Assembly (NCBI GenBank): GCA_963716475.1
Contig: OY970314.1
Location: 436,790 to 500,789 of the forward strand
From: Candidatus Woesebacteria bacterium
GTDB lineage: Bacteria > Patescibacteriota > Microgenomatia > UBA8517
Direction: 5' to 3'
Length of the DNA: 64,000 nt
This document shows positions 1 to 45,868 of this stretch, one piece after another (the first letter of the stretch is position 1; each line of letters starts with the position of its first letter). The notes beneath the pieces were generated by a model, which had not been told where the DNA came from, did not search any database, and worked only from the letters and a program-made list of their open reading frames with translations. The translations under genes were made by a program, and so were the position numbers.

Positions 1-225
1 GCAAAATCGGTAATTTCTTTTTCTCTTAATGTTAGTGTCTGAAAATTCTTCATGATTTTTGCCTTTATAATAAAAACCCTATTCCTGAAAAAATGGTGCC
101 ACAAATCTCAGGCCGGAAGCCCCGATGTTTTTCATTTTCATATTAATGTATAATGTCGTCCTGTTCAGGAGTATTGTATATTATTTTGTTTGCGTAAAAA
201 ACATAAAGATGTCACAATTCGGTGA

Positions 226-969
226 ATGAAAAAAATAGTCATAACAGGCGGGTCGGGAAAACTGGGAAAATCCTTAAAAAAGTTTTTTAACGAAGCTCTT
301 TTTCCGTCCCACCACGAGCTTGATATAACGGACAATAAATCTGTCGCCTCATATTTTAAAAAACACCAAGCTGACATCATAATTCATACGGCAGCCATTA
401 CACACGTCCGGCAGTGTGATGCAAACAGAAATTTCGCATGGAATGTTAACGTTCAGGGAACTGTAAATTTATTAAAAATACTACAAAAACAAAAGAATAA
501 CCCCTACTTTATTTTAATATCGACCCCGTGCATTTTTGACGGAAAATCATCTCCCTTTAACGAAGAAAGTATTCCCGATCCAAAAAATTTTTATGGTTTG
601 ACAAAACTTGCCCAAGAGGTTGCACTGCAATCATCGGGATTAAAAAATTGGCTAATCGTCAGAACAAATTTTATTCCGGAGGTCCCTTGGCCTTATCCTA
701 AAGCTTTCAAGGACAGATTTGGTACATATTTATTCAGCGATGATGTTGCTAAGATCATGAAAGACGTTGTGGAAAAAGGGACCACGGGAATAGTACATAT
801 TGTCGGAGATAGAAAGATATCTATGTACCAACTCGCAAAAATGGTGACACCAAAAATAAAACCAATGACCTTTAAAGATTATAGAGGTCCTGAACTTACC
901 GTGGATATGAGCTTGACCAGCAGAAGGTGGAGAAAATATAGGATCGGGTTCGCTAAAAACGCTATATGA
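226..969 (+). CDS. RmlD-like NAD(P)-dependent sugar 4-ketoreductase (dTDP-4-dehydrorhamnose reductase family)
   Basis: N-terminal Rossmann motif VITGGSGKLG. The layout LDITD...ADIIIHTAAIT and a catalytic YxxxK-like region match the RmlD substrate-binding family. 247 aa. Confidence 0.6.
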   Translation: MKKIVITGGSGKLGKSLKKFFNEALFPSHHELDITDNKSVASYFKKHQADIIIHTAAITHVRQCDANRNFAWNVNVQGTVNLLKILQKQKNNPYFILISTPCIFDGKSSPFNEESIPDPKNFYGLTKLAQEVALQSSGLKNWLIVRTNFIPEVPWPYPKAFKDRFGTYLFSDDVAKIMKDVVEKGTTGIVHIVGDRKISMYQLAKMVTPKIKPMTFKDYRGPELTVDMSLTSRRWRKYRIGFAKNAI

Positions 970-2270
970 ATTCTAAATCAAAACCTTCTGTAAAAAATAA
1001 GGTCGTTGCGGTTATTGGTTTGGGGTACGTTGGATTACCCCTGGCGCTGCTTGCCAAAAAAAGAGGTTATGACGTTATAGGTATTGACATAAATAAAGAT
1101 CGGGTAAAAAAAATTAACAACGGCATTTCTCCTATCACTGATAAAAAAATCGAAAAAGATCTTTCTACAACAAAAATCGTAGCTTCTTACGATTACGGCC
1201 TTGTCCAAAAAGCAAACATTATTATTATATGTGTTCCGACTCCCGTGACCAGCATCAAGAAACCGGATTTTAAACCGCTTATTGATAGCTGCAAAGAAAT
1301 CGGTAAAAAGCTGAAAAAGGAGCAACTGGTAATAGTGGAGTCAACCGTAAACCCCGGATCTATCAAAGAAATTGTGGTCCCGGTATTGGAAAAATATTCA
1401 GGTCTTAGAGTAAACAAAGACTTCCGTGTTTCCCATTGTCCTGAAAGAATTGACCCGGGAAACAGCAGGTGGAATGTCGAAAATATCCCAAGAGTTATAG
1501 GAAGCCTCAATAAAGTAGGGTTAACACAAACCAAAAAGTTCTATAAATCAATATTAAACGCACCTTTAAAATCAATGAGTACTATCGAGGAAGCCGAAGC
1601 CGTAAAAATATTTGAGAACAGCTTCAGAGATGTAAATATTGCCTTCGTTAACGAATTTGCAATGTCTTTCAATAAATTCGGCGTTAATATTTTAAATGTT
1701 ATTGATGGTGCTTCAACAAAACCGTTTTCGTTTCTTCCCCACTACCCCGGTTGCGGTGTTGGGGGCCACTGCATACCGGTCGATCCTTATTACATGATCG
1801 ACTACGCGAAAAATAATGGCTTTAATTATGAGCTTCTGGCACTAGCCAGGAAAATTAACAATAATATGCCAAAATTTACCGTGGATTTGACAGTCGACGC
1901 ACTCAAAAAAAATAAAATAAAAATCCGAAAGGCCATTGTTGCGGTTCTGGGACTATCATATAAAAAGGGTATTGCCGATACGCGGGAAACTCCTGCTTTC
2001 GTTATCATTGATCTCCTGAAAAAAAGAGGGATAAAAGTAAAATCATACGATCCTAAAGTGAAAATAAAATCTTCCTCTAAAACATTAACAGATAGCCTGT
2101 ATGGCGCTAACGCCGTCGTTATTGCTACCGATCATGATGAATTCCTGTCCCTGAAACCTAAATATTTTTTGAGTAAAGGAATAAAAATAATAATTGACGG
2201 AAGGAACTGCCTTAAAAGGGAAGAGTTTATTAAATCGGGAATTTATTACCGGGGAATTGGAGTAATTTAA
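966..2270 (+). CDS. Nucleotide-sugar 6-dehydrogenase (UDP-glucose/UDP-ManNAc/UDP-GlcNAc dehydrogenase family)
   Basis: NAD-binding motif VIGLGYVGLPLA at the N-terminus. Catalytic Cys region GGHCIPVDPYY. 434 aa, typical of Ugd/WecC/TviB. Overlaps the upstream gene by 4 nt. Confidence 0.8.
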   Translation: MNSKSKPSVKNKVVAVIGLGYVGLPLALLAKKRGYDVIGIDINKDRVKKINNGISPITDKKIEKDLSTTKIVASYDYGLVQKANIIIICVPTPVTSIKKPDFKPLIDSCKEIGKKLKKEQLVIVESTVNPGSIKEIVVPVLEKYSGLRVNKDFRVSHCPERIDPGNSRWNVENIPRVIGSLNKVGLTQTKKFYKSILNAPLKSMSTIEEAEAVKIFENSFRDVNIAFVNEFAMSFNKFGVNILNVIDGASTKPFSFLPHYPGCGVGGHCIPVDPYYMIDYAKNNGFNYELLALARKINNNMPKFTVDLTVDALKKNKIKIRKAIVAVLGLSYKKGIADTRETPAFVIIDLLKKRGIKVKSYDPKVKIKSSSKTLTDSLYGANAVVIATDHDEFLSLKPKYFLSKGIKIIIDGRNCLKREEFIKSGIYYRGIGVI

Positions 2271-2271
2271 A

Positions 2272-3213
2272 TTGCCAAACAAAAAAACAATCAGAGCCAA
2301 GTCGAATATTCTCATAACGGGTGGTTCCGGGTTTATCGGCATACATCTGATTAAGTATCTTCAAAAACATGGTCACAAAGATATAACTGTTATTGATCTC
2401 ATCTCCCCGAAAGTCAAAGGCATTAAATTTATAAAAAGCGATTTCAATAAGTTAAATATCAAAGCAAAAGCCCTTAAAAATATTGATTACGTCTTCCATT
2501 TCGCAGCCATAGTGGGTGTCGATAAAAGCCGGTTAAGTCCAAAATCAGTTATTCGGATAAATAACGTAAATACGAAGAAATTTATCGACTTGTGTGTAAA
2601 AATGGGTGTTAAGAGATTCATATTCAGTTCCTCTTCCGAAGTTTACGGAAATTCGAAAAATATCCCGTTTAAGGAAAATTCAAAACTACATCCCATTTCC
2701 GAATACGCAAAAAGCAAAATTGAAGTGGAGAAGTATCTTAAGAAATATCAAAACAAATTTAAAAATGGTGTCGGTATCGTAAGGTTTTTCAATGTTTACG
2801 GACCGGGTCAGAGAAAAGATTTCGTAATCAGCAAATTTATAGATAACGCAAGATCCGGAAAAGCCATTAAAATCCTCGGGGACGGGAATCAAACTCGGTG
2901 CTTTACTTATGTAGCCGATGCCATCGAGGGTCTTTACCGCGTATTCAAATACAACAAAAGTCGATATGAAATATTTAATATCGGTAGTAATCAGGAACAT
3001 ACAGTCAACGAATTGCCAAAAATTATTTTGAAAAATTTTCCCGGGTCTAAATCAAAGATCGTGCATGTTGGATATGGAAATGGTCAAAGGGGTTGCGACT
3101 TAGAGATCATACGGCGTGTTCCTGCAGTTTACAAAGCATTTAAATTACTGGGATTCACCGCAAAAACTACATTAAAAAGTGGAGTAAAACAATTTGTTGA
3201 AAATTCATCATAA
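2272..3213 (+). CDS. NAD-dependent epimerase/dehydratase (UDP-glucuronate decarboxylase / UDP-sugar 4-epimerase-like short-chain dehydrogenase/reductase)
   Basis: ILITGGSGFIGIHL Rossmann motif and a YAKSK catalytic YxxxK. 313 aa. Begins with a TTG start directly after the dehydrogenase. Confidence 0.7.
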   Translation: MPNKKTIRAKSNILITGGSGFIGIHLIKYLQKHGHKDITVIDLISPKVKGIKFIKSDFNKLNIKAKALKNIDYVFHFAAIVGVDKSRLSPKSVIRINNVNTKKFIDLCVKMGVKRFIFSSSSEVYGNSKNIPFKENSKLHPISEYAKSKIEVEKYLKKYQNKFKNGVGIVRFFNVYGPGQRKDFVISKFIDNARSGKAIKILGDGNQTRCFTYVADAIEGLYRVFKYNKSRYEIFNIGSNQEHTVNELPKIILKNFPGSKSKIVHVGYGNGQRGCDLEIIRRVPAVYKAFKLLGFTAKTTLKSGVKQFVENSS

Positions 3214-5466
3214 TCGTGTCTTAAACACGTAAACATTATTCTCCGAAAATATTTGGGTTCCATACGTCATTTTATAATTATCCGTCCCTTCGACTATCAA
3301 GTAGTGTATCTTGGAGTTACCGTCAATTAAAGCTCCCCGAACCGTTAAAAGGTAAATGTAGTTATCGGCAAAATTATTTTCAAACTGGTCATTTGTACCG
3401 ATTCTGCTCAGAGAAAAAGGCATCCCTTTAGAATCACCCAGAATTACATCGGTAATTTTTAGTTGTGTTGAATAGGGAACCAGGCCTATTTTGTAATCTA
3501 TAGGAGGTGCCTCCTGAAAATACCAATTGGTTTTAATTAGCCCGTAAATTCCGATAGTACCTAGTGCCAAAGTACAAACTATAAGGGTTAGCCTTTTCTT
3601 AAATAATTTGTCAAGGATATACGCAACCAAAATCATAGGAATGGGGAAAATTACCAAATAGTAATGTCCTGGGGGGTTTCCGTGAATAAAAAGACCGATA
3701 TAACTTACCAGTAAATTTATTATTAAAAGGTAAAACGGCATTTCCTTATCTCTGTTTTTGAATAATTTACTGACCAAATAAACAGAACTAATTGCTACCA
3801 GAATAAATAAAATAAGAGATATCGTTCCTTCGTATCCTACCAATGAGTCGGAGAAGAACTTATAAATCGAATAAAAATTCTCTGATAATATAGCCGTATT
3901 TACGGTATTTTTTTGATATACACCAAAAAATCCTAAAATACGGTACGGGATCCAACTCAACAGTTGTATCGTGATATTAAACTTATCTGAAATTTCGTAA
4001 ATAAAAAAGGTAATATTGGGAATTAAAAATCCCAAAACAAAATGTAATATGTATTTGAACTTTGGTTTAACCCGGTAAAAAAGAAAACAAACAACCAACG
4101 CAGGGATCAAGAGGAGGGGGCTGGGGAAAAAACTCATTGTCAAACCCAAAACAATTCCTAACTTAAATAAACTCTTACCCTCATCCTTTATCGAATCCCT
4201 TAAATACAAGAGATAAGGTAAAAATAAAATTGCGACAACTGGATTGTAACGGGAGTTTCTTGTTTGTAATATCCATGCGGGAGAAACCGCCACCAAAAAA
4301 GATGAGATTAAGGCAATGTTTTGATTAAATAATTTTTTAACATAATAGTAGCAAACCAAAATCGACAGCGCCCCCACTACTCCCCAAAAAACATTGATTA
4401 CGATAGGATTGTAATTCCAAATTAACAGTAGAATTATGTAAATCCAGTATGCAATCGGGGGTATGAAAAACCATTCGTGAGAAGTCCTGGGTCCTATTAG
4501 AAACGTCCGCGTACCGTGGATTATGTTCCAGACATTCGTATAGTCGGTTCCCACCTCTCCACCATAAAGAATGTTTGGATAAAATCTGTAAAATCTTAGA
4601 ATTGTAGCAAGCGCCAGAATACCCAAGAGTACTAATGTGTATTTGGAAAATCTAGCAAAACTTTCTACCAATAAAGCAGACAAAATTCCGTAATGCTTTT
4701 TAAAATATAGAAATCTGCTTTTTCTATTTATTGCTTTTGCCTCCGGTGATTCCTTAGGGGTTCCTTTAGATTCAAGATGAAGCGCCTCAGATCCTGCATT
4801 AAAATACAATTTCCAGCCTTTTTTATCAAGTCTTTTAGAAACATCGTTTTCTTCAAAATAAAGAAAAAGGTCTTTATCGAAACTCCCCATATCTTCATAG
4901 GCATTTCTTCTCATCATGAATGCCGCCAGTTGTACAACATCAACCCTTCTGGATGTATTTCTATCCCAATCACTCATCAGATGACGCTTAACAATATAGT
5001 TATTTGGAAACATTTTGTTTATAAATGACAAATAAAAAACGCCTCTCAAGGGTGTCAATTCGAGTGTTGTGCTTAAATAGGGTTTACCTGATACGTTTTT
5101 TATTCTCGGGGAAACAATGGCAATCTTTTTATTTTTTTGTAGAACTTTATAAGCATGACTTAATACTTTGTCATTAATCAAGATATCTGAGTCAATAGAA
5201 AATATATATTCGCCTTTAGTCTTATTAAACCCCAAATTATGACCCCCAGACCATCCTAGGTTTTTAGAGGTAGGTATATATTTTATCCAAGGGTATTTAC
5301 GAAGAATCCTATTCTTTTCGAGTTTTTCTTCATTGTTATCGACTAATATAACCTCAGCCAGTTTGAATTTCGTTTTAGCTTTTGCAAGCGAATCCAAACA
5401 TTTGAAGACTTCGTTTCCGTGTCCGTAGTGAACAACAACAACCGAAATTTTATTATTTTTCTGCAT
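3208..5466 (-). CDS. Family-2 glycosyltransferase fused to a large polytopic membrane domain (GT-C/ArnT/PMT-like)
   Basis: The N-terminal roughly 250 aa show the GT2 signature (SVVVVHYGHG...VILVDNN...IDSDILIND). The C-terminal roughly 480 aa are very hydrophobic with more than 10 predicted helices. 752 aa. Confidence 0.65.
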   Translation of the reverse strand: MQKNNKISVVVVHYGHGNEVFKCLDSLAKAKTKFKLAEVILVDNNEEKLEKNRILRKYPWIKYIPTSKNLGWSGGHNLGFNKTKGEYIFSIDSDILINDKVLSHAYKVLQKNKKIAIVSPRIKNVSGKPYLSTTLELTPLRGVFYLSFINKMFPNNYIVKRHLMSDWDRNTSRRVDVVQLAAFMMRRNAYEDMGSFDKDLFLYFEENDVSKRLDKKGWKLYFNAGSEALHLESKGTPKESPEAKAINRKSRFLYFKKHYGILSALLVESFARFSKYTLVLLGILALATILRFYRFYPNILYGGEVGTDYTNVWNIIHGTRTFLIGPRTSHEWFFIPPIAYWIYIILLLIWNYNPIVINVFWGVVGALSILVCYYYVKKLFNQNIALISSFLVAVSPAWILQTRNSRYNPVVAILFLPYLLYLRDSIKDEGKSLFKLGIVLGLTMSFFPSPLLLIPALVVCFLFYRVKPKFKYILHFVLGFLIPNITFFIYEISDKFNITIQLLSWIPYRILGFFGVYQKNTVNTAILSENFYSIYKFFSDSLVGYEGTISLILFILVAISSVYLVSKLFKNRDKEMPFYLLIINLLVSYIGLFIHGNPPGHYYLVIFPIPMILVAYILDKLFKKRLTLIVCTLALGTIGIYGLIKTNWYFQEAPPIDYKIGLVPYSTQLKITDVILGDSKGMPFSLSRIGTNDQFENNFADNYIYLLTVRGALIDGNSKIHYLIVEGTDNYKMTYGTQIFSENNVYVFKTRL

Positions 5467-5533
5467 ATATACGCGAAGTTTATCACAGCTTCATTTATTA
5501 CAATAATGTTTAAGTGGTAGAATACTTTGTTAT

Positions 5534-6367
5534 ATGGAAATTAACCAAAAATTGCCTCAAATCTATTTAGATCTATTAAAGAAAAGTCTGACAAGATATG
5601 TCTTTGATGATGGGTATCTCAGTCTCTACTTCAGAAATCATGGAAGGTTTAAACACCTACTATATCGAACCATCGGGAAAGTATTAGATCCGTTCTCGCT
5701 AGAACTTGTTAAACATAACCAGTTTAATCCAAAGGTACGTGAGCTTGGTAAAGACTGGCCAGCAACGGCTGATACCATGATCGGTTTGGTTGGCCTCAAT
5801 AATATTCAAGAATGTGTTGTAAATATCCTAAAAAAAGATATTCCGGGAGATTTAATAGAAACGGGTGTCTGGAGAGGTGGAGCAACGATTTTCATGCGCG
5901 GTATATTGAAAACTTACAATATTAGGGATCGCAAAGTATGGGTCGCTGATTCATTTGCTGGTTTACCTAAACCATCGAATGATCGTTTTAAAGAGGATAT
6001 GATAGACCATCTGGACACTTACCCCCAACTAAGAGTTTCTTTAAAAGAAGTTAAAATAAATTTTTCAAAATACGGATTACTCGATAACCAAGTCAAATTT
6101 CTTGTTGGTTGGTTTAAAGACACTCTTCCAAAAGCTCAAATTAAGCACCTGTCTTTGCTACGTTTAGATGGTGACATGTATGAATCCACCATGGTTGCTT
6201 TAAAAGCTTTATATCCAAAACTTTCAATTGGGGGTTATGTAATTATTGACGATTACTGCCTTCCTCAATGTAAAACTGCCACTAACGACTATAGACGGTT
6301 AATGAAAATCAAAGATCCAGTTCACGCTATCGGTAACACGGGTATCTTTTGGAGGAGAACAAGATAA
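5534..6367 (+). CDS. TylF/MycF-family SAM-dependent O-methyltransferase (macrocin O-methyltransferase-like)
   Basis: Motifs GVWRGGATIFMRGIL and LRLDGDMYESTMVALKALYPKLSIGGYVIIDDY are characteristic of the TylF family. 277 aa. Confidence 0.7.
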   Translation: MEINQKLPQIYLDLLKKSLTRYVFDDGYLSLYFRNHGRFKHLLYRTIGKVLDPFSLELVKHNQFNPKVRELGKDWPATADTMIGLVGLNNIQECVVNILKKDIPGDLIETGVWRGGATIFMRGILKTYNIRDRKVWVADSFAGLPKPSNDRFKEDMIDHLDTYPQLRVSLKEVKINFSKYGLLDNQVKFLVGWFKDTLPKAQIKHLSLLRLDGDMYESTMVALKALYPKLSIGGYVIIDDYCLPQCKTATNDYRRLMKIKDPVHAIGNTGIFWRRTR

Positions 6368-6391
6368 TTAAAACACTTTTGTAGTCTCCCT

Positions 6392-7663
6392 CTATTTTGA
6401 AAGAATCGGGTTTGGTAGAGGAATAATAAACCTTCCTCCTTTCTTTAAGTAATCTTTTTCCTTTTCTATAATGCTGTCTTTGTAATCCCAAGCAAAGATG
6501 AGGGTGTTTCTTATGGTATCTTTTCTGAATACGTACGGAGAAACTATTGGTATATGCGTTCCCGGGGTATATTTACCTTGTCTTTCCGGTGAATCATCCA
6601 CTATATAATCCAACATATTATTATCGATTCCACAGAAATTCGATAATGTGTTTGCTCGTCCACCTGCACCGTAACCTGCGATTCTTTGATTGCTTCTTTT
6701 TATATTAAGAAGAAGTTTCCTAAGTTCTAGTTTATGTTTGTAAACCTTTTTAGAAAAATCCCTCAAATAACTTTCTTTAAATATTTCGGACTTGGTTTCA
6801 CTTTTAATCAGTTCCACAACCCTTTTGTTAACCTTCCTAGAATGGTGGTTCTTAAATTTTACAAAGATTCTAATGGTACCTGAATGGATCGGAATTCTTT
6901 TAACATCAAATATTTCAAGATCGTATTTACTTAAAAACGGAACTAACGAATACAAACTGTAATAACTCAAATGTTCACCGTAGAAAAAATCGTATTGCAT
7001 TTTTTCCAATAAATCTGCCAGATAATGCACTTCAAAAACCAATATCCCTTTTGGATTAAGAAGCTTAATAATACCTTTGAAAACATTATTCATATCGTCA
7101 ATATGGGCTAAAACATTATTTGCCAAAATCATATCTGCTTTCCCATATTCCTTTACAATATTTTTTGCAGTTTTATCTCCAAAATAATCAACAATTGTTT
7201 TAACTCCCTTCTTTTCTGCTACTTTTGCAATATTTCTTGCGGGATCAACACCCAATACTTTATATCCCATTTTTTTTAAGGGTAACAGCAAGACCCCGTC
7301 ATTACTGCCTATTTCTACAATGAATGATTTTTTCTTGAGAAATCTCTTTTTCATTTCATTTGCATATTTTTGGAAATAACCCGATAGGCTAACCGAAGAA
7401 AGATAAAAATACTTTTCAAATAAAACCTTTTGGGGAATAAGATCTAAATTTTGTACAAGTCCACATTTTCTACAAAAGTATATTCTTAATGGATAAAAAT
7501 ACTCTTGGCCCAATTCTTTTTCAGTAAGGTAGTTACCCGCATGGGGCATGTACCCGAGATCCAATAACTTTACTAATTTCTTGCTTTCACAAAATCTACA
7601 CGACTTTCTTATTTTAAATTTACCAAGTCTAATTTTCCTTTTCATTTCAGTGTAGTTTATCAA
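6392..7663 (-). CDS. NDP-hexose C-methyltransferase (TcaB9/TylC3-like)
   Basis: N-terminal Zn-ribbon CRFCES...CRKCG, a SAM-binding block VEIGSNDG, then a C-terminal domain with GYGAGGRANTLSNFCGI, TPGTHIPIV and FAWDY. This matches the TcaB9 three-domain architecture. 423 aa. Confidence 0.75.
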   Translation of the reverse strand: MINYTEMKRKIRLGKFKIRKSCRFCESKKLVKLLDLGYMPHAGNYLTEKELGQEYFYPLRIYFCRKCGLVQNLDLIPQKVLFEKYFYLSSVSLSGYFQKYANEMKKRFLKKKSFIVEIGSNDGVLLLPLKKMGYKVLGVDPARNIAKVAEKKGVKTIVDYFGDKTAKNIVKEYGKADMILANNVLAHIDDMNNVFKGIIKLLNPKGILVFEVHYLADLLEKMQYDFFYGEHLSYYSLYSLVPFLSKYDLEIFDVKRIPIHSGTIRIFVKFKNHHSRKVNKRVVELIKSETKSEIFKESYLRDFSKKVYKHKLELRKLLLNIKRSNQRIAGYGAGGRANTLSNFCGIDNNMLDYIVDDSPERQGKYTPGTHIPIVSPYVFRKDTIRNTLIFAWDYKDSIIEKEKDYLKKGGRFIIPLPNPILSK

Positions 7664-7709
7664 AAAAGTACATATGTTATCACAGATCTAAAACAACCCG
7701 TGAAAAGCG

Positions 7710-8738
7710 TTAAGAAAGGATCTTTTCTTTTTTAAGGAGAATCCTGATATCGCCTTTTGACATTAAGGGGGTCGTGTCCGATGAATACCTAAATTCCTTA
7801 ATCTTGTAATTCAGAGTTTTGTAAGAAAAGCCCTGCTTTCCCGTTTCTATTTGGGGAAGGACTACGTAATGGTCTTTCTTTTTTATTGTTTTAAGTGACT
7901 CCATCGGCGATATCAGTGTTTCGTGAAGCTTTTCTCCTGGCCTGATACCTATTTCAATAATCTTTCTATTCTTAGCCTTCGAATTTTCTATCATCACCTC
8001 CGCAAGATCGTAAATTTTAAGAGGTCTGATCATGGGTATGAATATTTCCCCACCTTTCATTTTATTTAGAGCCGTGAACACCAATTGTGTTGCACTTTTT
8101 AGAGTTAAAACAAAACGAGTCATGTTTTTATCGGTTACAGTAAGATAACCGCCTTCCGAAATTTGCTTTTTAAATAATGGAATTATAGAACCACGTGATT
8201 CAAGAACGTTTCCATATCTAACCGATGCAAACCTTGTTTTTTTGGACCCTGTTTGGTTATTTGCTAAAGTAAATATTCTCTCCTGTATTCCCTTAGTCAT
8301 TCCCATAACGTTAATTGGCTCTACAGCTTTATCGGTACTAATTGATAAAACTTTGGATGCACCTACCCAAATAGCTGCATCAACTACATTTTGAGCACCT
8401 AAAATATTCGTCCTTACTGCTTCGAGAACATTGTATTCGGTAGATGGAATTTGTTTTAAAGCGGCCGCATGAATTATATAATCCACACCTCCAACCATAG
8501 CTTTTTTCAAAGAGGAGAGATCACGTACATCTCCAATCACAAACCTCAATTTATCTTTATATGCTTTCAGTTCGAATTGTAAAGAATACTGTCTGTCTTC
8601 GTCCCTGGAGTAAACAACGACCTGCTGGGGTCTCTCCTTTAGAATCTCTTTAACAAAAAAGGATCCGAATGATCCTGTACCTCCCGTAATTAATATTTTT
8701 TTATTCTTAAAGATGTTGTTCATTCTACCCTTTTTCAC
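7710..8738 (-). CDS. UDP-N-acetylglucosamine 4,6-dehydratase (PseB/FlaA1/CapD family)
   Basis: N-terminus KKILITGGTGSFGSFFVKEIL plus an STDKAVEPINVMGMTKG catalytic region. 342 aa, typical of PseB-type short dehydratases. Confidence 0.75.
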   Translation of the reverse strand: MKKGRMNNIFKNKKILITGGTGSFGSFFVKEILKERPQQVVVYSRDEDRQYSLQFELKAYKDKLRFVIGDVRDLSSLKKAMVGGVDYIIHAAALKQIPSTEYNVLEAVRTNILGAQNVVDAAIWVGASKVLSISTDKAVEPINVMGMTKGIQERIFTLANNQTGSKKTRFASVRYGNVLESRGSIIPLFKKQISEGGYLTVTDKNMTRFVLTLKSATQLVFTALNKMKGGEIFIPMIRPLKIYDLAEVMIENSKAKNRKIIEIGIRPGEKLHETLISPMESLKTIKKKDHYVVLPQIETGKQGFSYKTLNYKIKEFRYSSDTTPLMSKGDIRILLKKEKILS

Positions 8739-9951
8739 CCAGAGTCTTTCCGACGTAGTATACAGTGAAGGGCAGAGATACTACTGTACCGATAATGGCC
8801 GCCAATCCGGCCCCAATGATACCATAACTTCTCACCAAAGGCACGATTGTTATTAAAAGTCCAATTGTGCTTATTATTACAACTATTGTGGCATATTTCT
8901 GTTTGACCCGAGCCACGAGCAAAGATGATGATGACGTGGCTATCCCTCTTGTTACCCCTAGAATAGTTAATAGCTTGACAATAGGAACGGCCATTTCCCA
9001 TCCTTTTCCAAGTAATATTTCAACGATTGGTGTTGCAAAAACAAAGATAAAAACTCCAGAGCAAATCATAAGCACGGATGTTACTAAAAAATTCTTAATA
9101 AATGCTCGTTTAAGTCTTGATACATCATCCGAAATCTTTGAAAAAATAACAAACGTGACACTAAAAAAGACACCACCCACCTCGGTTAATGGAGCTGTGG
9201 ATATTTTATAAGCGTTTGAATATATTCCAAGCGGTGCCACCCCAAGCATTCTGCCAACTATTATGTTGTCGCTAGTTGTATAAATATAATCAAAGATACC
9301 GTATAAAGTAATCCATTTCCCCCGGTTTATAATTCTTTTCAACTTATCGACCTCGTAAGAAAATTTTGGTTTAGGACCGACAACTAGAAAGGTATAAATA
9401 ACCTCATACAATGCTCCACCAATGAGCCCCAACACTAATCCTAGGGGTGATTTGGTAATATACGCTCCGAAGACTGATAACAATGACTCTACAAAAAATA
9501 CCGAGGTGTTATAGAAATATTGTTTTTCAAACCGTAATTCTTTTTGAAACCTGATGACAGATGGATTTATAAAGCCTCGTATTAAGGGAACTGCTGCAAC
9601 AAAATAGAGAAGAATTCTAGCATCGGGGGAATTGAAAAATTTTGAAACAAATCCTGAAGTAACTGCTATAAGTAATGATATTAAAACACCTCTGACTATG
9701 GAAACAACCCATGCAGTATTAACATATTCTTCTAAATTGTCCCTTTCCTGAACTAAAAATATATTTATCCCTGTCTCTGTAATAATTTCCAAAAACCCTA
9801 ACGATATAGTAGCTATTGCATATATACCAAGATTAAAAGGTGACAATAGATGGGCAATAATCGCAATTCGTACAATACCAAGAATCCGATAAGAGACTCT
9901 AAATGCCCCCATCCACGTCACCCCTTTTATTGCGTCTTTTAAATACCCCAT
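8725..9951 (-). CDS. Polysaccharide/oligosaccharide flippase (Wzx, MOP superfamily)
   Basis: 408 aa, about 12 predicted TM helices, composition typical of Wzx. Lies inside the glycan operon and overlaps its neighbours. Confidence 0.6.
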   Translation of the reverse strand: MGYLKDAIKGVTWMGAFRVSYRILGIVRIAIIAHLLSPFNLGIYAIATISLGFLEIITETGINIFLVQERDNLEEYVNTAWVVSIVRGVLISLLIAVTSGFVSKFFNSPDARILLYFVAAVPLIRGFINPSVIRFQKELRFEKQYFYNTSVFFVESLLSVFGAYITKSPLGLVLGLIGGALYEVIYTFLVVGPKPKFSYEVDKLKRIINRGKWITLYGIFDYIYTTSDNIIVGRMLGVAPLGIYSNAYKISTAPLTEVGGVFFSVTFVIFSKISDDVSRLKRAFIKNFLVTSVLMICSGVFIFVFATPIVEILLGKGWEMAVPIVKLLTILGVTRGIATSSSSLLVARVKQKYATIVVIISTIGLLITIVPLVRSYGIIGAGLAAIIGTVVSLPFTVYYVGKTLGEKG

Positions 9952-10895
9952 TACCCGCTAAGTATACCTGATAGGAATCCTCCAATCACGGCCATATCTG
10001 AAGTTATTTGAATAATCGGTCCCCAAAGTGCCACTTTCCAGTCCCCAAATTCCAAAAAAACTTTTCTGTATGCCCAAATTAAATACAACAAAAATAATAC
10101 TATCAAAGCGGGGAGTAAGACATGATATTTAAACGATAAAACTAATATAGTCAGGCCTAAAACATACCTAAACATGATAAATAATGCCTTAATATTGTGC
10201 GACTCAAGACCTTTTCCCGGAAATAACCAAATTTTTGTCAAAGCATCTCCTCTTGCATAGCCAAACACTTTATTAAAAAACTCGCTTAGCTTATCCGGCA
10301 TCCCCCACTCTACCGTTGCATCTTTCACGCGTGAAATCTTTGCGCCAGTTTTTATTAGTTTCTTATTAAACATCGTATCCTCCACGGTTCCCTCTAAATT
10401 TTCGGGAAATCCCCCAAGTTCTTCCCAAATCTTTTTTGTAAATGCAAGTGAACGGGATGATGGCAGAAATCTATTGTTAAACTTTCCGGGTCTAACACCT
10501 AAATATACTGATTCTGCTTTTTGAAGCGCAGAGCCACCTGTCATTCTGTAAAAACCGGCAGAAACATCAACTCTTCCTGTTAAAAATGGAGCAGTAATTT
10601 TCTTTAACCAGTTTTTATCGGCGACACATCCCGCGTCCGTCGTGGCAATAACGTCTCCCTCCGCTATATCTACACCTATATTTCTGCCTTGCGCCCGCGT
10701 GCTTTTTTCAACCAGAAGTTTGATGCCGCCGTATTTCTTTTGATAATGGTGAATTATTTCAATGGTTTTATCCTTTGACCCGCCATCCACAATAATAATC
10801 TCTTTCGCCTTCTTGGATTGATTAAGTAAAGAGTCCAATAGAGAGGCTATTACTCCCTCTTCATTTAACGTGATTATACAAATTGAGATATTCAT
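9951..10895 (-). CDS. Family-2 glycosyltransferase with C-terminal membrane anchor
   Basis: SICIITLNEE...IIVDGGSKDKT...TTDAG(C) DxD-like GT2 signature, followed by two C-terminal hydrophobic helices. Confidence 0.7.
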   Translation of the reverse strand: MNISICIITLNEEGVIASLLDSLLNQSKKAKEIIIVDGGSKDKTIEIIHHYQKKYGGIKLLVEKSTRAQGRNIGVDIAEGDVIATTDAGCVADKNWLKKITAPFLTGRVDVSAGFYRMTGGSALQKAESVYLGVRPGKFNNRFLPSSRSLAFTKKIWEELGGFPENLEGTVEDTMFNKKLIKTGAKISRVKDATVEWGMPDKLSEFFNKVFGYARGDALTKIWLFPGKGLESHNIKALFIMFRYVLGLTILVLSFKYHVLLPALIVLFLLYLIWAYRKVFLEFGDWKVALWGPIIQITSDMAVIGGFLSGILSG

Positions 10896-11727
10896 CGGCT
10901 AATTTATCCCAAGTCTGCAACTTGGCCCATTTCTCAACATCTTTTCTTACAAACGGTGACATTTTCCAATAATCTTCTTTAATTTTATTGTTCCAGAATA
11001 ATTTTAACTTGCAACCGTATGATAAAGCTTCCAAAGCCGCTAGATAACCTCCTGGCGTACAATACACAGCTTTTTTATAATATGGTATCGGGTCAGTAAA
11101 TCCATGTACCTCTCCATAATTCTCACATTGTCCTCTCAAATCTCCGTCTCCGCAAAAATCAACTTGATATTGCGGGTTTTCCTTCAACCAATCAAGAAAT
11201 TTCAATAATCCTGTATTCTCCTCCAACCTTCCTACATAAACTATAGAGTTCTTAACTCTGGCTGTCTTGATATGTACAGTTGCGGTAGCACCATATGTAA
11301 TTAAATCAAATTTAATTCGTAAATATTTCTCAAGAAATTTCCCTACGCCAACGCTACCAGTCGAAAGTTTAGCAGCTATTCTTTTTTGCCAAATACCCAT
11401 CTTGGAAAGAGGGTTATCCCATTCTAAGCCATGAATTGTCGTAAATACGGGCTTTTCTGGATACAATAACCTGAATGGAAAATACCAAATGAAAACATCA
11501 TGGATATGAACAATATCTGTTTTTTTGATTAGATTTCGGTTTTTAAATAACCAAATCCAAATAAAAATTATACCTAACAACTTAATACGAGGGTATTTAA
11601 TATTCGCCTCTGATATAACGGTTACCTTGTTCCCCTTTTTCTTTAATATTTTGCCAATTTCCTCGACATGCTTTTCTACCCCGCCAATATTTGGGTAGTA
11701 GAGCCGTGTTATAAAAAGTATCTTCAT
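10861..11727 (-). CDS. GT4-family (group 1) glycosyltransferase
   Basis: N-terminus KILFITRLYYPNIGGVEKHV is typical of GT4/GT-B enzymes. 288 aa. Confidence 0.55.
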   Translation of the reverse strand: MKILFITRLYYPNIGGVEKHVEEIGKILKKKGNKVTVISEANIKYPRIKLLGIIFIWIWLFKNRNLIKKTDIVHIHDVFIWYFPFRLLYPEKPVFTTIHGLEWDNPLSKMGIWQKRIAAKLSTGSVGVGKFLEKYLRIKFDLITYGATATVHIKTARVKNSIVYVGRLEENTGLLKFLDWLKENPQYQVDFCGDGDLRGQCENYGEVHGFTDPIPYYKKAVYCTPGGYLAALEALSYGCKLKLFWNNKIKEDYWKMSPFVRKDVEKWAKLQTWDKLADEYLNLYNHVK

Positions 11728-12410
11728 TTCTTTTTACAAAAAACTATCAAAAGGTTTGGTTTTCTATACCAAGGAATCAGTTTAACTATAATGCTCTTAA
11801 TCGTAAAGAAGTTACGGAAAGCGAAAATAAATTCGGACTCTTCAATGACGAATCCGGCAGATTCTAATTCTTTCTTCAAAATATATAAGTTGTATTCTCG
11901 CACATGTCTACTATAGTTTTTCCCTTCTCTGTTCAATTTTTCAAGATTTTCGTTAAGGGGAACGGAAACCACAAGACTTCCGTGTTTTTTTGTAACACGA
12001 TTTATTTCTTTTAGTGCTTTTATTAGATCCTTTTCGTAGATATGCTCAAGAACGTCGAGCACAGCTACTGTATCAAAAAATGATGTCTTGAATGGAAGTT
12101 TGGATACACCTGCGACATAAAACTTTCCATTCAATGTTTTCTTGGCATTTTTAATTGATTTTGAAGAAATGTCTACACCATAAACTTCAATTGGTAACTT
12201 TGATTTAATTAAGTCTCTCTCCAAATTTCCTGCACCAATACCGATGTCAAGAAATTTCCCGGGGTTCCTTTTGAGAAAATGGATAACACTTTTAATTTTC
12301 TTAATATAAAAAGGGCCCTTTATGAGTACATCATTTTTCTCAAACAATAGTTTGTCCCACACTTTTGGTGTGTTTGGGTTTTTCATATATTTATACTCGA
12401 AGTTTACCAC
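11724..12410 (-). CDS. Class I SAM-dependent methyltransferase
   Basis: FLDIGIGAGNL motif I and VLDVLEHI post-II motif. 228 aa. Last gene of the minus-strand glycan operon. Confidence 0.6.
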   Translation of the reverse strand: MVNFEYKYMKNPNTPKVWDKLLFEKNDVLIKGPFYIKKIKSVIHFLKRNPGKFLDIGIGAGNLERDLIKSKLPIEVYGVDISSKSIKNAKKTLNGKFYVAGVSKLPFKTSFFDTVAVLDVLEHIYEKDLIKALKEINRVTKKHGSLVVSVPLNENLEKLNREGKNYSRHVREYNLYILKKELESAGFVIEESEFIFAFRNFFTIKSIIVKLIPWYRKPNLLIVFCKKK

Positions 12411-12845
12411 AAAATAGTTTGATTTAGCTTCACAAACTCCTTTAAAGTCTCATCCGTATAAATCAATAATATTTCAAAAGTGACAATGTATATTAATGTC
12501 CAAAAAGAAATTTGGATATAGGGAGATTATTCCTCAGAATTAATAACCTCCTCGTTAGGACTTGGTTTTAGGGCTTCAAAAGCTTTGTATACATAACAAA
12601 AGTATTTGATGGTGACCCTTTCGTAACCAAAAAAACCAATACATTAGACTGGATAGCGTAAACGCCCTAGAGTTGGATAAATGTCTTGGTAAGGAAGCAA
12701 AAGCAGATATGGAAAAACTTATATTAAATAAAAAGGTTTTCATAACAGTAACACCCTCGTTCAACCTTATTCAGGTGATAAATAGTTTCATACCTACGAT
12801 ATTGTATATTGACAATATATTCAAGATAGTTAAAACTTATTACGT

Positions 12846-14567
12846 ATGTATTCGAAACATAGATACTTATTCACACTTTTACTGGTTGGAATCTTAGGCC
12901 TAGTTATCCCCTCATCAGTTTCCGCATGCACCTATAATTCAACCATAACGGGAAACCATTTAGATATTCAGGTGCAAAATAATGATTGGCCAAATTTAGG
13001 GGTCCTTGAAATCATAAGTTTTTCGCATACTGCTATATGGGAGAAAATGTATCAGCCGTCCGGAGTAAATTGGGTTACAACATGGGATAATCTAGGTAAC
13101 AATATGTATTTTGGATTAATCGGAGGCTTAAACGGAGATACTGCATATTGGGGATTTAATGCGTTGACTGTTACAACAATTACTATCCCATATGGAGTTT
13201 ATGGAGTTGATTTTATTGGGTCACTATCTCATCAGGATTATTATATTCAAATGAACCACCCTGAAGATTTTGGATCAAATTATTTTGTTTGTACTCGAAA
13301 TGGAGAAGTGATTAATCAAAATTTAGTCACTCCTACGAAAGTTATTTTTGTACCTGGATTGGGGGCAAGCTGGAATGCAAATGCTATCTTGAATTGTACA
13401 AAGGACACTAACTCCAGCTGGACTCTTGCACCTTTTGCAGAAGATATTTACAACCCAGTTATCCAGGCAATAAATGAATATGGTTGGACTACTATACCCT
13501 TTTACTATGATTGGAGAAACCCTGTTTTACAAAATTCCAAACAGCTGGCAAGCTTTATTGATCAAAACTCCATGGCAGAAGAGATGGTAAACCTAGTAGG
13601 CCACAGTATGGGAGGACTTATCGGGAGAGGATACCTAGAGGCCTCTAGCGGAGGAAAACTTTCAAGCCTTTTAACCGTTGGTAGTCCGCATAAGGGTTCT
13701 GCCCTCGCCTACCCACCTTGGGCCGGTGGAGAGATCTGGAACGACAACTTTTTGATAAAAATTGCGATGACTCTCTACCTCAAGCATTGCGGTGGAATAC
13801 CCGCAACTGATAAAGATATTATTCATTATGAACTCCCTTCTGTCAAAGATCTCTTACCGACCGATCCATATCTACAAAAAAATAAAATAGCAGATCTTTA
13901 TCTGCCGACAAATCCTGAGAACAAAAATGATTGGTTAAATAATTTATCTTCTAAATCTTGGGGGGTAAGACTGGGTTACATAGCGGGAACCAGTTTTAAT
14001 ACTTTAAAGATAATCCAAACAAAAGATCCCAATAAAAAAGATTTTTATCTCGGTATTTGGGTCGATGGGAAACCAACCGGAAAAACATTTTCACCGGATG
14101 GTGATGGGACAGTATTATCAAGTAGCGCAATATTACCTAATGCAAGTTTCAGCGCCACAATAGACCAAACCCATACTGGCTTAGTGACTTCTGCCGAAGG
14201 TGTGGCCAAAATATTGGAATTTTTAGGTAAAACCGAAACTGTAACCACCCAACCGACATCACATTTAAACACTGTTGAACCAAACTCGGCACTCATAATT
14301 ATTGGCTATCCTGCCGATTTTACAGTTACGGACAAAAACGGAAAATCCAAAATGGACAAAGACGGTATGATTAGCTTCATGAACCCAGAGTCGGGATCGT
14401 ACAAGTTAAATCTTATTCCCAAGTCAAATAACACACTTTTTATAGTTACTCAATTTTTGCCAAATGGAAATGTAAAGTATAAAGAATACAATTTCGAAGG
14501 GTTTGGACCGAAGTTCAAAACAGTATTATTCGATCCCCTAAACCCAGTTGATGACCCGCTTTACTAA
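12846..14567 (+). CDS. Secreted alpha/beta-hydrolase, lipase/acyltransferase-like (GHSMGG nucleophile elbow; PGAP1/LCAT-like) with extra N- and C-terminal beta-rich domains
   Basis: N-terminal signal peptide MYSKHRYLFTLLLVGILGLVIPSSVSA. Central LVGHSMGGLIGRGY lipase pentapeptide. About 200 aa of non-catalytic C-terminal sequence. 573 aa. Confidence 0.6.
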   Translation: MYSKHRYLFTLLLVGILGLVIPSSVSACTYNSTITGNHLDIQVQNNDWPNLGVLEIISFSHTAIWEKMYQPSGVNWVTTWDNLGNNMYFGLIGGLNGDTAYWGFNALTVTTITIPYGVYGVDFIGSLSHQDYYIQMNHPEDFGSNYFVCTRNGEVINQNLVTPTKVIFVPGLGASWNANAILNCTKDTNSSWTLAPFAEDIYNPVIQAINEYGWTTIPFYYDWRNPVLQNSKQLASFIDQNSMAEEMVNLVGHSMGGLIGRGYLEASSGGKLSSLLTVGSPHKGSALAYPPWAGGEIWNDNFLIKIAMTLYLKHCGGIPATDKDIIHYELPSVKDLLPTDPYLQKNKIADLYLPTNPENKNDWLNNLSSKSWGVRLGYIAGTSFNTLKIIQTKDPNKKDFYLGIWVDGKPTGKTFSPDGDGTVLSSSAILPNASFSATIDQTHTGLVTSAEGVAKILEFLGKTETVTTQPTSHLNTVEPNSALIIIGYPADFTVTDKNGKSKMDKDGMISFMNPESGSYKLNLIPKSNNTLFIVTQFLPNGNVKYKEYNFEGFGPKFKTVLFDPLNPVDDPLY

Positions 14568-15229
14568 CTCTTTATCCAATTTTTGTAGTTTTTGTAAAGT
14601 CTGGGGAGTTCGACAAAAACTACCACTCCAAGCACGATTGCATAAGAAATAATTGCAAAAGAATAAAAAGGTTGAACCCTGAAATCAGTCCCGATCAAAA
14701 ATCCGTGGAGTCCGACAATCAGAAAAACCGCATAATTAATTACGTGGAGTTTTCTCCAGTTTGCTCTCATCCATGGGGTAGCTTTCCTAAAAATCCCGGC
14801 AAAAACCGTAATTGATAAAAGCCAAAAAGAAATTCTTCCCAAAGTGTAGTAGTAGTCAATCCGGCTTTGACAAAGCAAACAAACGTCTACAAAAACAAAA
14901 TAGGGATTCCAGCCGATTCCTGCGAAATGATTAAAAACCATAAAAGTTAAAGGGTGCAATAACGCCAGAGAATAAATTATTACTCCTTCAATTACGTGAT
15001 ACTTAAAAACCCATTCCCCTATTATTTTCTGTAGTTTATCCATAAAAGCTCCCAAGATAAGCTGCACAAAAAGTAAGGTAAAAAGAGTCAGTCCCAGAAT
15101 CCTTTGAATATAGTTGGTTAGTGTCGCAGAATTTTTAAGAACCAAAGAGAGTGGTGTTACCTGAAGAGCAGTTATAGGAACCAATAGCAAAAGTACGATA
15201 ACGAAAGCGAAGAAGATAACCTTTTTCAT
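14564..15229 (-). CDS. Polytopic membrane protein with paired His in helices (ferric-reductase/MsrQ-like heme b domain?)
   Basis: 221 aa, about 6 predicted TM helices. His pairs at HVIEG...LHPL and KLHVIN...GLHGF resemble bis-heme ferric-reductase-like transmembrane components. No partner gene is adjacent. Confidence 0.35.
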   Translation of the reverse strand: MKKVIFFAFVIVLLLLVPITALQVTPLSLVLKNSATLTNYIQRILGLTLFTLLFVQLILGAFMDKLQKIIGEWVFKYHVIEGVIIYSLALLHPLTFMVFNHFAGIGWNPYFVFVDVCLLCQSRIDYYYTLGRISFWLLSITVFAGIFRKATPWMRANWRKLHVINYAVFLIVGLHGFLIGTDFRVQPFYSFAIISYAIVLGVVVFVELPRLYKNYKNWIKS

Positions 15230-40925: not shown

Positions 40926-41802
40926 TGCCAAGTTAATCGGTCAGGGTTTAACGGGTTCTGAAGGAAGCAGATCCCTGCCCTTAATGCTTTCCTACGGAAC
41001 AAATATAGTAGCCGGAGTTACACCCGGAAAAGGCGGACAAATAGTTAATAAAATTCCTATTTTTAATTCCGTTAAAGAAGCTATCGATTCCGTCGGTCCC
41101 GTAGACGGTTCTGTTCAATTTGTTCCACCGCTCTTTACAAAAAGTGCCGTTTTTGAAGCCCTTGATGCGGGTATAAAATTTATACTGATCGGTGCAGAAA
41201 AAGTTCCCGTTAGGGATGCTGCAGAAATATACGCTTATGCCGGGAAGCTCAACGCAAATGTTATCGGTCCGAGTTCTGTAGGCATAATAAACCCCGAAAA
41301 AAGATTAAAAATCGGAGAAATCGGAGGACAAAACCCGGACCGGGTTTTTACCAAGGGCAATGTGGCCATAATATCAAAATCCGGAGGAATGACTTCTGAG
41401 ATAGGACTATTACTTAAAAACAATAACCTTGGCATTTCCTGGGCTGTAGGTATCGGCGGGGATAGAATTATTTCAACTGATTTTGCAGATTTTCTTTTGG
41501 AACTCGATAAAGATAAAAAAACGGAAGCGTCCGTAATCTTCGGAGAACTTGGCGGTACATATGAAGAAAGAGTTGCCCGCCTGGTTAAAAATGGGAAAAT
41601 TAAAAAACCTGTTATTGCTTTTGTCGCGGGTGAATTTACAGCCAGTTTACCCGGCAATGTACAATTTGGCCATGCGGGAGCTATTATAGAAGGTAAGAGA
41701 GGACTTCCTTCTGAAAAAAGAAGGGTCTTACGGGAATCCGGAGTTTTGGTTGCAGATAATTTTGACGAGATTCCTAATCTGGTTATAAAATCAATCCAAT
41801 AA
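40906..41802 (+). CDS. Succinyl-CoA synthetase alpha-subunit-like protein (SucD/AclA-N/CcsB family); start refined to ATG 40906
   Basis: IGQGLTGSEGS CoA-binding motif. Phospho-His loop QFGHAGAII. About 298 aa from the internal ATG. The track ORF begins 141 nt earlier in a region overlapping sucC. Confidence 0.8.
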   Translation: MLLLPNNAKLIGQGLTGSEGSRSLPLMLSYGTNIVAGVTPGKGGQIVNKIPIFNSVKEAIDSVGPVDGSVQFVPPLFTKSAVFEALDAGIKFILIGAEKVPVRDAAEIYAYAGKLNANVIGPSSVGIINPEKRLKIGEIGGQNPDRVFTKGNVAIISKSGGMTSEIGLLLKNNNLGISWAVGIGGDRIISTDFADFLLELDKDKKTEASVIFGELGGTYEERVARLVKNGKIKKPVIAFVAGEFTASLPGNVQFGHAGAIIEGKRGLPSEKRRVLRESGVLVADNFDEIPNLVIKSIQ

Positions 41803-45863: not shown

Positions 45864-45868
45864 TGAAT

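Follow-up and report, generated by a model that had tools for sequence, protein, structure and literature searches.

A surface-glycan locus of a Woesebacteria-like Patescibacterium predicted to make a C-methylated 6-deoxy-N-acetylhexosamine

Introduction

Which sugar is made by a bacterial surface-glycan locus that combines a sugar C-methyltransferase of a family known from actinomycetes with a uridine diphosphate (UDP)-N-acetylglucosamine (UDP-GlcNAc) dehydratase? The question is raised by the left end of a 64,000-nucleotide stretch of DNA (positions 436,790 to 500,789 of contig OY970314.1, assembly GCA_963716475.1), which we call the window. An initial annotation, made from the sequence alone, assigned the locus to a small-genome bacterium and read it as making a C-methylated, O-methylated 6-deoxy amino sugar. 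The organism is indeed a Woesebacteria-like Patescibacterium (contig of ~0.98 Mb), and every gene named in that annotation is an intact open reading frame (ORF) whose coordinates and family are confirmed by Pfam and NCBIfam. Here we present evidence that a swappable section of the locus probably makes a C-methylated 6-deoxy-N-acetylhexosamine (HexNAc) for a surface glycan, where the substrate and the order of the enzymes are our prediction. The C-methylated 6-deoxy amino sugar is thus likely to stand, on the strength of three linked enzymes, and the O-methylated part of the claim is not retained.

Patescibacteria and the DPANN archaea are ultra-small and mostly uncultivated, and in the accounts available the cultivated Patescibacteria are obligate episymbionts. 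To our knowledge, very little has been established about the surface glycans of either group.

Results

Three candidate enzymes for a branched amino sugar

The proposed pathway requires three genes:

7710-8738, minus strand: short soluble PF02719 UDP-GlcNAc 4,6-dehydratase (Polysacc_synt_2, 342 bits)
6392-7663, minus strand: TylC3/TcaB9-family nucleoside diphosphate (NDP)-4-ketohexose C-methyltransferase, 423 amino acids (aa) from a TTG start (Methyltransf_13, _23 and _14)
226-969, plus strand: short RmlD/WbvR-like NDP-4-keto-6-deoxyhexose 4-reductase, 247 aa (RmlD_sub_bind, 117 bits)

The C-methyltransferase has a three-domain build, consisting of a zinc domain (PF08421, 70.7 bits), an S-adenosylmethionine (SAM) domain (PF13489, 70.7 bits) and a C-terminal domain (PF08484, 163.8 bits). 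It matches MtmC (273 bits), KijD1 (252 bits) and TcaB9 (241 bits; ~32% identity) over its full length, all of them solved 3-C-methyltransferases of deoxythymidine diphosphate (dTDP)-sugars. In the alignment with TcaB9 the zinc cysteines C22, C25, C64 and C67 are retained, and Y85, N183, H187, Y228, E230 and H231 correspond to TcaB9 Y76, N177, H181, Y222, E224 and H225. The residue names and numbering follow the TcaB9 literature; comparing residue identities confirmed that they are shifted by +2 relative to the deposited sequence. Most of the zinc and active-site residues are invariant across 18 homologues. The residues kept support a catalytically intact enzyme of the TcaB9/TylC3 family, the identity given to it initially, and the protein does cluster with sugar C-methyltransferases, in a neighbor-joining clade separate from the solved members. 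The zinc-site and catalytic alignment requires the TTG start at 7663, and homologues of 413-419 aa favor the long form, beginning at this TTG or a few codons downstream. The public 385-aa annotation of the protein (P0001) begins 38 codons late and loses the first zinc CxxC.

The family is common, since an exhaustive search returned 3,733 clusters (50% identity) at E <= 1e-30. Some members (for example P0252, P0264 and P0288) are fused to other domains and reach 660-1100 aa.

The protein encoded by 7710-8738 is best matched by Helicobacter pylori PseB/FlaA1 (263 bits), followed by Pen, FnlA and CapE. The hidden Markov model for PseB (TIGR03589) gives 365.6 bits, under its equivalog cut-off of 407.75, and that for FnlA (TIGR04130) gives 257.3 bits, under its cut-off of 730. 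In the motif STDK...VMGMTK the protein has the Thr-Asp-Lys and Met-xxx-Lys of CapE and FnlA, invariant among its orthologues, as seen when the query STDKAVEPINVMGMTK is aligned to FnlA STDKAVYPINAMGISK and CapE STDKAAYPINAMGISK. The tyrosine of the PseB YxxxK motif (LYGATK in H. pylori FlaA1) is replaced by methionine. PglF likewise carries methionine in place of the tyrosine of the short-chain dehydrogenase/reductase (SDR) family. The earlier description as a PseB-type UDP-GlcNAc 4,6-dehydratase therefore holds for the PF02719 family but not for the PseB type. Because it shares Thr-Asp-Lys and Met-xxx-Lys with CapE and FnlA, both of them proven dehydratases, 7710-8738 is a credible producer of UDP-4-keto-6-deoxy-HexNAc; these motifs argue against an ordinary epimerase in a locus devoid of a 4-keto producer. 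The true start is probably the methionine at 8723; orthologues in L001 (88% identity) and L005 (68%) start five and four alignment columns later, respectively.

Two other products of such a dehydratase were considered and rejected. A pseudaminic-acid locus would need PseC, PseH, PseG, PseI and PseF, and none of these families is present among the window ORFs scanned. A 4-amino sugar was set aside as the locus has no aminotransferase.

For the third enzyme, the prediction of an RmlD-like 4-ketoreductase is borne out by RmlD_sub_bind and by the retained Tyr-xxx-Lys. The RmlD profile TIGR01214 gives 122.7 bits (cut-off 224) and is covered over positions 1-148 of 285, the Rossmann half. The nearest solved relative is a 273-aa archaeal RmlD (2ggs). 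The protein keeps a GGSGKLG N-terminus and Y123-GLT-K127, and we place the catalytic Ser/Thr by eye at the segment ISTP. WbvR is RmlD-like, as 226-969 is. A truncated pseudogene was rejected, as orthologues are of similar size (256-272 aa).

The closest relatives of 226-969 lie in archaeal-labelled contigs (Aenigmatarchaeota L032, 51%; Methanosarcinales-labelled L076, 50%; Thermoplasmata-type loci, 42-43%) and not in the closest Woesebacteria. In L076 the homologue is ~2.8 kb from a C-methyltransferase gene, with no PF02719 gene nearby. This archaeal affinity points to a sugar module exchanged between Patescibacteria and archaea.

The three genes recur together

A scan of species-representative genomes yielded 551 stretches encoding relatives, from which 79 distinct loci were retained; the best hit has 62% identity. 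A short PF02719 dehydratase lies within 6 kb of 29 of 94 C-methyltransferases (81 distinct loci), and 17 of these 29 cases also include an RmlD-like reductase. In a neighbor-joining tree, one 46-member clade, which holds the window protein, contains 27 of the 30 dehydratase-linked sequences; the 30 include the window protein, and dehydratases were tagged more loosely here than for the count of 29. Outside the clade 3 of 49 sequences are dehydratase-linked (Fisher p 2.6e-8), a value that is indicative only because the clade was picked post hoc and the sequences are related. A clade overlapping it at Jaccard >= 0.8 appears in 99 of 100 bootstraps, with exact recovery in 39. When a threshold of 45% identity is used as a proxy for the clade, the association is weak (p 0.017 overall, 0.15 for loci with full flanks), and of the two tests the tree is the stronger. 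Other C-methyltransferase clades adjoin genuine RmlB (TIGR01181, 409 bits) or other extended SDRs. The dehydratase-linked clade spans Patescibacteria, DPANN and Thermoplasmata archaea, and contigs labelled Planctomycetota, Verrucomicrobia and Cyanobacteria.

Aenigmatarchaeota L032 (8222-11284) has a gapless run of three genes, for the dehydratase, for a reductase with 51% identity to 226-969 and for the C-methyltransferase. Four Thermoplasmata-type loci (L024, L025, L027 and L034) carry a C-methyltransferase, a 42-43% orthologue of 226-969, a UDP-GlcNAc 2-epimerase and a dehydratase. Comparative genomics thus supports a tie among the dehydratase, the C-methyltransferase and the 4-reductase.

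A conserved backbone with an exchangeable section

The remaining genes of the locus are as follows:

1-53, minus strand: first 17 codons of a small glycosyltransferase family 2 (GT2)-like gene ('p190') that runs off the left window edge (match to p190 of L001)
966-2270, plus strand: UDP-N-acetylhexosamine 6-dehydrogenase, WecC/Cap5O/TviB-like (TIGR03026, 401 bits)
2272-3213, plus strand: extended SDR, nearest to the UDP-hexuronate 4-epimerase type (MoeE5, 148 bits)
3208-5466, minus strand: 752-aa fusion of a GT-A (GT2) and a GT-C (PMT_2) domain (Pfam GT2 and PMT_2; AlphaFold2 model)
5534-6367, plus strand: TylF-family metal-dependent sugar O-methyltransferase (PF05711, 320.3 bits, E 1e-95)
8725-9951, minus strand: Wzx-type MOP flippase (Polysacc_synt_3, 201 bits; NF007773, 150 bits)
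9951-10895, minus strand: backbone GT2 glycosyltransferase (PF00535, 92 bits; 61-81% identity in relatives)
10861-11727, minus strand: backbone short GT4-like (GT-B) glycosyltransferase (Glyco_transf_4, 44 bits; 287-311 aa in relatives)
11724-12410, minus strand: class I SAM methyltransferase, 228 aa, at the head of the backbone operon (Methyltransf_11, 66 bits)

Between 12410 and 7710 each minus-strand gene overlaps the next, such that translational overlaps join the methyltransferase, GT4, GT2, Wzx and dehydratase genes. In the plus-strand trio (226-3213), 226-969 and 966-2270 overlap by 4 nt and 2272-3213 begins two bases after 2270. We argue operon structure from gene overlaps only, since a promoter and terminator scan of 1-13000 found no more sites than in shuffled sequence.

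The same gene order and cassette occur in at least nine Woesebacteria-type loci, and thus the grouping is no chance assortment. In these relatives the order starts with lipase-like and ferric-reductase-like neighbors, a methyltransferase in some loci, GT4, GT2 and Wzx. It continues with the PF02719 dehydratase (again not in every locus), a short reductase on the opposite strand, the C-methyltransferase and the GT2/PMT_2 fusion, and ends with a 190-aa GT2-like protein, Wzy_C and an Ig-domain (Big-domain) membrane protein. Homologues of the methyltransferase at 11724-12410 hold the same position in L005, L009, L012 and L087. Compared with the relatives, the window has a plus-strand trio (a reductase of another lineage, the dehydrogenase and the epimerase) inserted after the fusion gene. 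The conserved neighbors are represented in the window at 12846-15229 by a 573-aa lipase/PGAP1-like alpha/beta hydrolase and a ferric-reductase-like membrane protein.

The backbone of L087 is as close to that of the window (Wzx 63%, GT-C 70%) as the backbones of the relatives that bear a C-methyltransferase. Between Wzx and a stand-alone GT-C (9001-10461) of L087, an acetyltransferase and a 542-aa GT1 replace the dehydratase, the C-methyltransferase, the reductase and the GT-A domain. Because L087 swaps this segment on an equally related backbone, the section from Wzx to GT-C behaves, as judged by gene order, like a serotype-style exchangeable cassette on a conserved backbone. In the window this cassette comprises the dehydratase, the C-methyltransferase, TylF and a GT-A domain that is fused to the GT-C.

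Glycosyltransferases, flippase and polymerase

The AlphaFold2 model of the fusion protein 3208-5466 (pLDDT 88.7) contains a GT-A domain (residues 1-240), two interface helices, ~13 transmembrane helices and, at the C-terminus, a small domain outside the cytoplasm. When residues 271-752 are modelled alone, Foldseek retrieves ArnT (5ezm, TM-score 0.61), AglB (E 4.5e-6), PglB, STT3, ALG9/12 and Pmt4, and the model thus places the membrane domain in the GT-C fold. An acidic motif, GEVGTDY (303-309), lies in the first extracytoplasmic loop, just past the first transmembrane helix, and its pattern GE-x-G-x-DY is conserved. The GT-A profile matches chondroitin synthase with 80 bits over residues 7-240, dolichyl-phosphate mannose synthase (DPMS) with 48 bits over the N-terminal half and ArnC with 17 bits. 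By these scores, the GT-A domain appears nearer to elongating GT2 enzymes than to polyprenyl-phosphate sugar synthases, which weakly disfavors an ArnC/ArnT-like role. Since the GT-A domain accompanies the genes for the C-methyl sugar, it is the best candidate for transferring that sugar. To judge from the few homologues named by source, the fusion family appears to occur mostly in Patescibacteria; stand-alone GT-C versions of 485 aa also occur.

The Wzx flippase was identified correctly at the outset. The initial annotation further noted that no Wzy polymerase is seen, and took this as a hint of protein glycosylation or a short glycan. The statement is literally true of the window, but its interpretation is not supported, as the relatives all carry Wzy_C. 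The translation of the minus-strand gene from position 53, MKNFQTLTLREKEITDF, matches p190 of L001, MKNIQTLTLNEENITDF, at 13 of 17 residues. In every relative examined p190 comes before Wzy_C, which lies two genes past GT-C. The left end cuts through the p190-like gene, so that the absence of Wzy most likely reflects only where the window stops, with Wzy_C presumably encoded a short way beyond. Protein glycosylation is possible, owing to the conserved GT-C and Wzy_C/PglL-family genes.

A uronic-acid branch and O-methyltransferases

The dehydrogenase 966-2270 is best matched by the UDP-N-acetylmannosamine dehydrogenase of PDB entry 4r16 (301 bits) and by Cap5O (237 bits). The initial call of a UDP-sugar 6-dehydrogenase is therefore correct and can be narrowed to the UDP-N-acetylhexosamine type. 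Its neighbor 2272-3213, proposed as a decarboxylase or epimerase, scores 148 bits with MoeE5 (a UDP-glucuronic acid 4-epimerase) and about 109 bits with UDP-xylose synthases, and no equivalog cut-off is reached. A UDP-hexuronate 4-epimerase is favored and a decarboxylase is less likely. Together, we read the two genes as a putative HexNAc-uronic acid branch.

TylF (5534-6367) scores 320.3 bits against a cut-off of 23 (PF05711), and matches MycF (251 bits) and NovP (248 bits). TylF-family enzymes such as MycF and NovP act on sugars after attachment. Among related cassettes TylF is unique to this genome, where it fills the slot of the relatives' reductase, and the 228-aa methyltransferase is part of the conserved backbone, outside the cassette. 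On these grounds O-methylation of the C-methyl sugar cannot be deduced from the locus, and this part of the initial claim is unsupported.

Other genes in the window

Further envelope-glycan genes (43245-49773, 56798-58381 and 61482-62525) encode GlmU-like, NagB-like, GT4 and GlmS proteins, an LCP (LytR-CpsA-Psr) ligase and another PMT_2 GT-C, which carries TPR repeats. As a set they suggest wall-linked glycopolymers. At 35684-38155 (minus strand), inside the dcw cluster, an 823-aa protein fuses a MurC-like Mur ligase to MurB (FAD_binding_4 and MurB_C). Three genes at 39780-42467 (plus strand) resemble ATP-citrate lyase/citryl-CoA synthetase-lyase: one with ATP-grasp_2 and Citrate_bind, one CoA-binding/CoA-ligase protein and one C-terminal citrate synthase half. 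They are unexpected in a Patescibacterial genome of ~1 Mb.

Discussion

A predicted pathway

The gene families, the intact catalytic residues, the synteny, the clade-level coupling and the GT-C fold are directly supported. From these we infer what the substrate is, in which order the steps run, their regio- and stereochemistry, what serves as the acceptor and that this genome has Wzy_C. UDP-GlcNAc would be the starting substrate; GlmS and a GlmU-like gene are present in the same window. The dehydratase 7710-8738 would convert it to UDP-2-acetamido-2,6-dideoxy-hex-4-ulose. The C-methyltransferase 6392-7663 would then take the C3 proton beside the 4-keto group and methylate C3 from SAM, and 226-969 would reduce C4 with NAD(P)H. 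The predicted product is UDP-2-acetamido-2,6-dideoxy-3-C-methylhexose. In effect the pathway would be a 6-deoxy-L-HexNAc route of the WbvB/WbvR type with an inserted C-methylation.

Downstream, 966-2270 and 2272-3213 would supply a HexNAc-uronic acid for the same glycan. The branched sugar would most likely be transferred by the GT-A domain of 3208-5466, and the polyprenol-linked oligosaccharide would be extended by GT4, GT2 and the small GT2-like protein. Wzx would flip the lipid-linked oligosaccharide, and the GT-C domain and the Wzy_C protein would polymerise or transfer the glycan outside the membrane. O-methyl groups would be added by TylF and the 228-aa methyltransferase.

Comparison with characterized systems

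The closest parallels are the pathway of WbvB, WbvR and WbvD (UDP-N-acetyl-L-rhamnosamine, UDP-L-RhaNAc, and UDP-N-acetyl-L-quinovosamine, UDP-L-QuiNAc, in Vibrio cholerae O37 and Rickettsia; the UDP-L-QuiNAc pathway is described in PMC6765297) and the FnlA/B/C and CapE/F/G pathways to UDP-N-acetyl-L-fucosamine. In each, a short PF02719 dehydratase with Thr-Asp-Lys and Met-xxx-Lys acts on UDP-GlcNAc and is followed by a C4 reductase. The window differs in that a C-methylation by an enzyme of the TylC3/TcaB9 type would intervene between dehydration and reduction, in that no 2-epimerase is present, and in that the dehydratase falls below both the PseB and the FnlA cut-offs. The Thermoplasmata loci resemble a WbvB/WbvR/WbvD-like set, 2-epimerase included, to which a C-methyltransferase has been added.

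The actinomycete enzymes TylC3, EryBIII, MtmC, TcaB9 and KijD1 share the three-domain signature, the zinc site and the catalytic residues with 6392-7663. Unlike them, the window enzyme is partnered by a UDP-GlcNAc dehydratase and not by RmlB, lies in a Wzx surface-glycan locus of a Patescibacterium and belongs to a separate clade. Recruitment of a TylC3-family C-methyltransferase to a surface polysaccharide has a likeness in the phase I lipopolysaccharide of Coxiella burnetii, which contains virenose (6-deoxy-3-C-methylgulose), for which an in silico pathway predicts the C-methyltransferase CBU_0691 (PMC3539893). Virenose derives from a guanosine diphosphate (GDP)- or dTDP-hexose and has no 2-acetamido group, whereas the precursor in the window is predicted to be UDP-GlcNAc. 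A recent review describes branched sugars of the 3-C-methyl type as 'quite uncommon' in glycans (PMC9912281).

The ArnC/ArnT, Ppm1/Pmt and GtrB/GT-C systems also place a GT2, a GT-C of the PMT_2/ArnT fold and a flippase beside nucleotide-sugar tailoring genes. In the window, by comparison, the GT2 and GT-C are fused in one protein of 752 aa, and the GT-A domain is more like the elongating GT2 enzymes. Since Wzx is present as well, and Wzy_C in the relatives, the substrate of the GT-C may be an oligosaccharide. The enzyme families are thus individually known; their combination is uncharacterized and the product is a prediction.

Weighing the evidence

Several observations weigh against a C-methylated 6-deoxy-HexNAc as the product. 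All solved members of the C-methyltransferase family act on dTDP-sugars, and we know of no member that has been shown to use a UDP-linked or a 2-acetamido substrate. C3 and C5 methylation, and the D and L configurations, are not separable from sequence. Three close relatives, L002, L003 and L009, keep the C-methyltransferase and a reductase without a cassette dehydratase, which shows that a coupled dehydratase is no fixed requirement. Compared with the reductases of the closest relatives, 226-969 is only 24-28% identical and is not their orthologue. In the window 226-969 lies in a different operon, 5 kb from the C-methyltransferase; the functional link is supported despite this distance because the archaeal loci join all three genes. 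At the level of glycan assembly, Wzy_C is not seen. As initially remarked, no initiating phosphoglycosyltransferase is found among the window ORFs scanned, apart from MraY of the dcw cluster (30182-31231), and none is found in any related cassette. A literature search of incomplete coverage returned no C-methyl 2-acetamido-6-deoxyhexose, which is absence of evidence only, and no report of a C-methyltransferase coupled to a UDP-GlcNAc dehydratase.

An alternative is that the locus serves two sugars. The dehydratase and reductase might lead to a conventional 6-deoxy-L-HexNAc such as L-RhaNAc or L-QuiNAc. The C-methyltransferase would then have its own substrate, a dTDP- or GDP-4-keto-6-deoxyhexose for which the genes lie in another part of the genome, as for mycarose or virenose. 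The dTDP-sugar substrates of the characterized family members, the GDP or dTDP substrates invoked in the Coxiella model (PMC3539893) and the C-methyltransferases of L002, L003 and L009, which have no cassette dehydratase, are all consistent with such a division. Other clades, moreover, adjoin a genuine RmlB, for example the neighbor in L085 (identical 346-aa family in L052; TIGR01181, 409 bits). Against it, the scanned window ORFs, whose sole nucleotidyltransferase is the GlmU-like 43245-44453, include neither a clear RmlA nor an RmlB, a Gmd or any further 4,6-dehydratase. The window C-methyltransferase also falls within the PF02719-linked clade, and L032 holds the three genes as a single abutting unit. 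We consider two separate sugars unlikely. The same pathway could instead methylate C5 and yield a 5-C-methyl (gem-dimethyl, noviose-like) 6-deoxy-HexNAc. C5 of a 4-keto-6-deoxy sugar is the carbon methylated by NovU, CloU and CouU, which are members of this family, inverting PF02719 dehydratases also form a C5 carbanion-type intermediate, and the adjacent TylF-family enzyme resembles NovP, which O-methylates noviose. The residues kept in 6392-7663, however, are those of the C3-methylating TcaB9, and its nearest solved relatives (MtmC, KijD1 and TcaB9) are all C3 enzymes, a weak argument as the comparison was with C3 enzymes only. Methylation at C5 seems to us quite improbable.

A different doubt concerns the fate of the sugar. 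In an Arn-like or Ppm1/Pmt-like scheme, the GT-A domain would load a single sugar onto polyprenyl phosphate, which would be flipped and used by the GT-C domain to decorate a protein or a wall polymer outside the membrane, so that the sugar would not belong to a repeat unit. The GT-C fold is nearest to ArnT, and the succession of a GT-A domain, two interface helices and transmembrane helices is that of polyprenyl-phosphate glycosyl synthases. In addition, the C-methyltransferase gene is directly upstream of the fusion gene in most relatives, and sources label the stand-alone homologues GT39 or ArnT-like. The GT-A domain nevertheless matches elongating GT2 enzymes over its whole length, DPMS over half and ArnC barely, and in L087 it is replaced by a GT-B enzyme, a class not known for polyprenyl-phosphate sugars. 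On balance, transfer of a single sugar in this manner is improbable. That the locus is a decaying, non-functional remnant of horizontally acquired genes, making no unusual sugar, is scarcely credible. Its GC content (0.335-0.376) is below that of most other parts of the window (about 0.40-0.46), and its gene order is rearranged relative to the relatives. Low GC is usual in surface-glycan loci, however, and the ORFs are all intact and full length, with conserved catalytic residues, translational overlaps and a cassette conserved across many genomes.

Implications

A C-methylated 6-deoxy-HexNAc made by three linked enzymes thus remains our preferred product for the locus. More tentatively, and without leaning toward acceptance, we propose that a widespread TylC3-like clade may act on UDP-4-keto-6-deoxy-HexNAc to give an unreported class of product, and that Woesebacteria may carry it in a 'serotype' cassette built around a GT-A/GT-C fusion, which may glycosylate surface proteins. 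The locus offers a testable prediction: three soluble enzymes and one expected UDP-sugar heavier by 14 Da. If true, the known monosaccharides would gain a new branched amino sugar, and a family of methyltransferases familiar from dTDP-sugar antibiotics would gain a branch specific for UDP-HexNAc. The enzyme families are ordinary and current understanding would not be overturned. In ultra-small organisms, surface chemistry plausibly controls host recognition and phage attack, and the pairing of a conserved backbone with an exchangeable cassette suggests that Woesebacteria vary their surfaces in an O-antigen-like manner.

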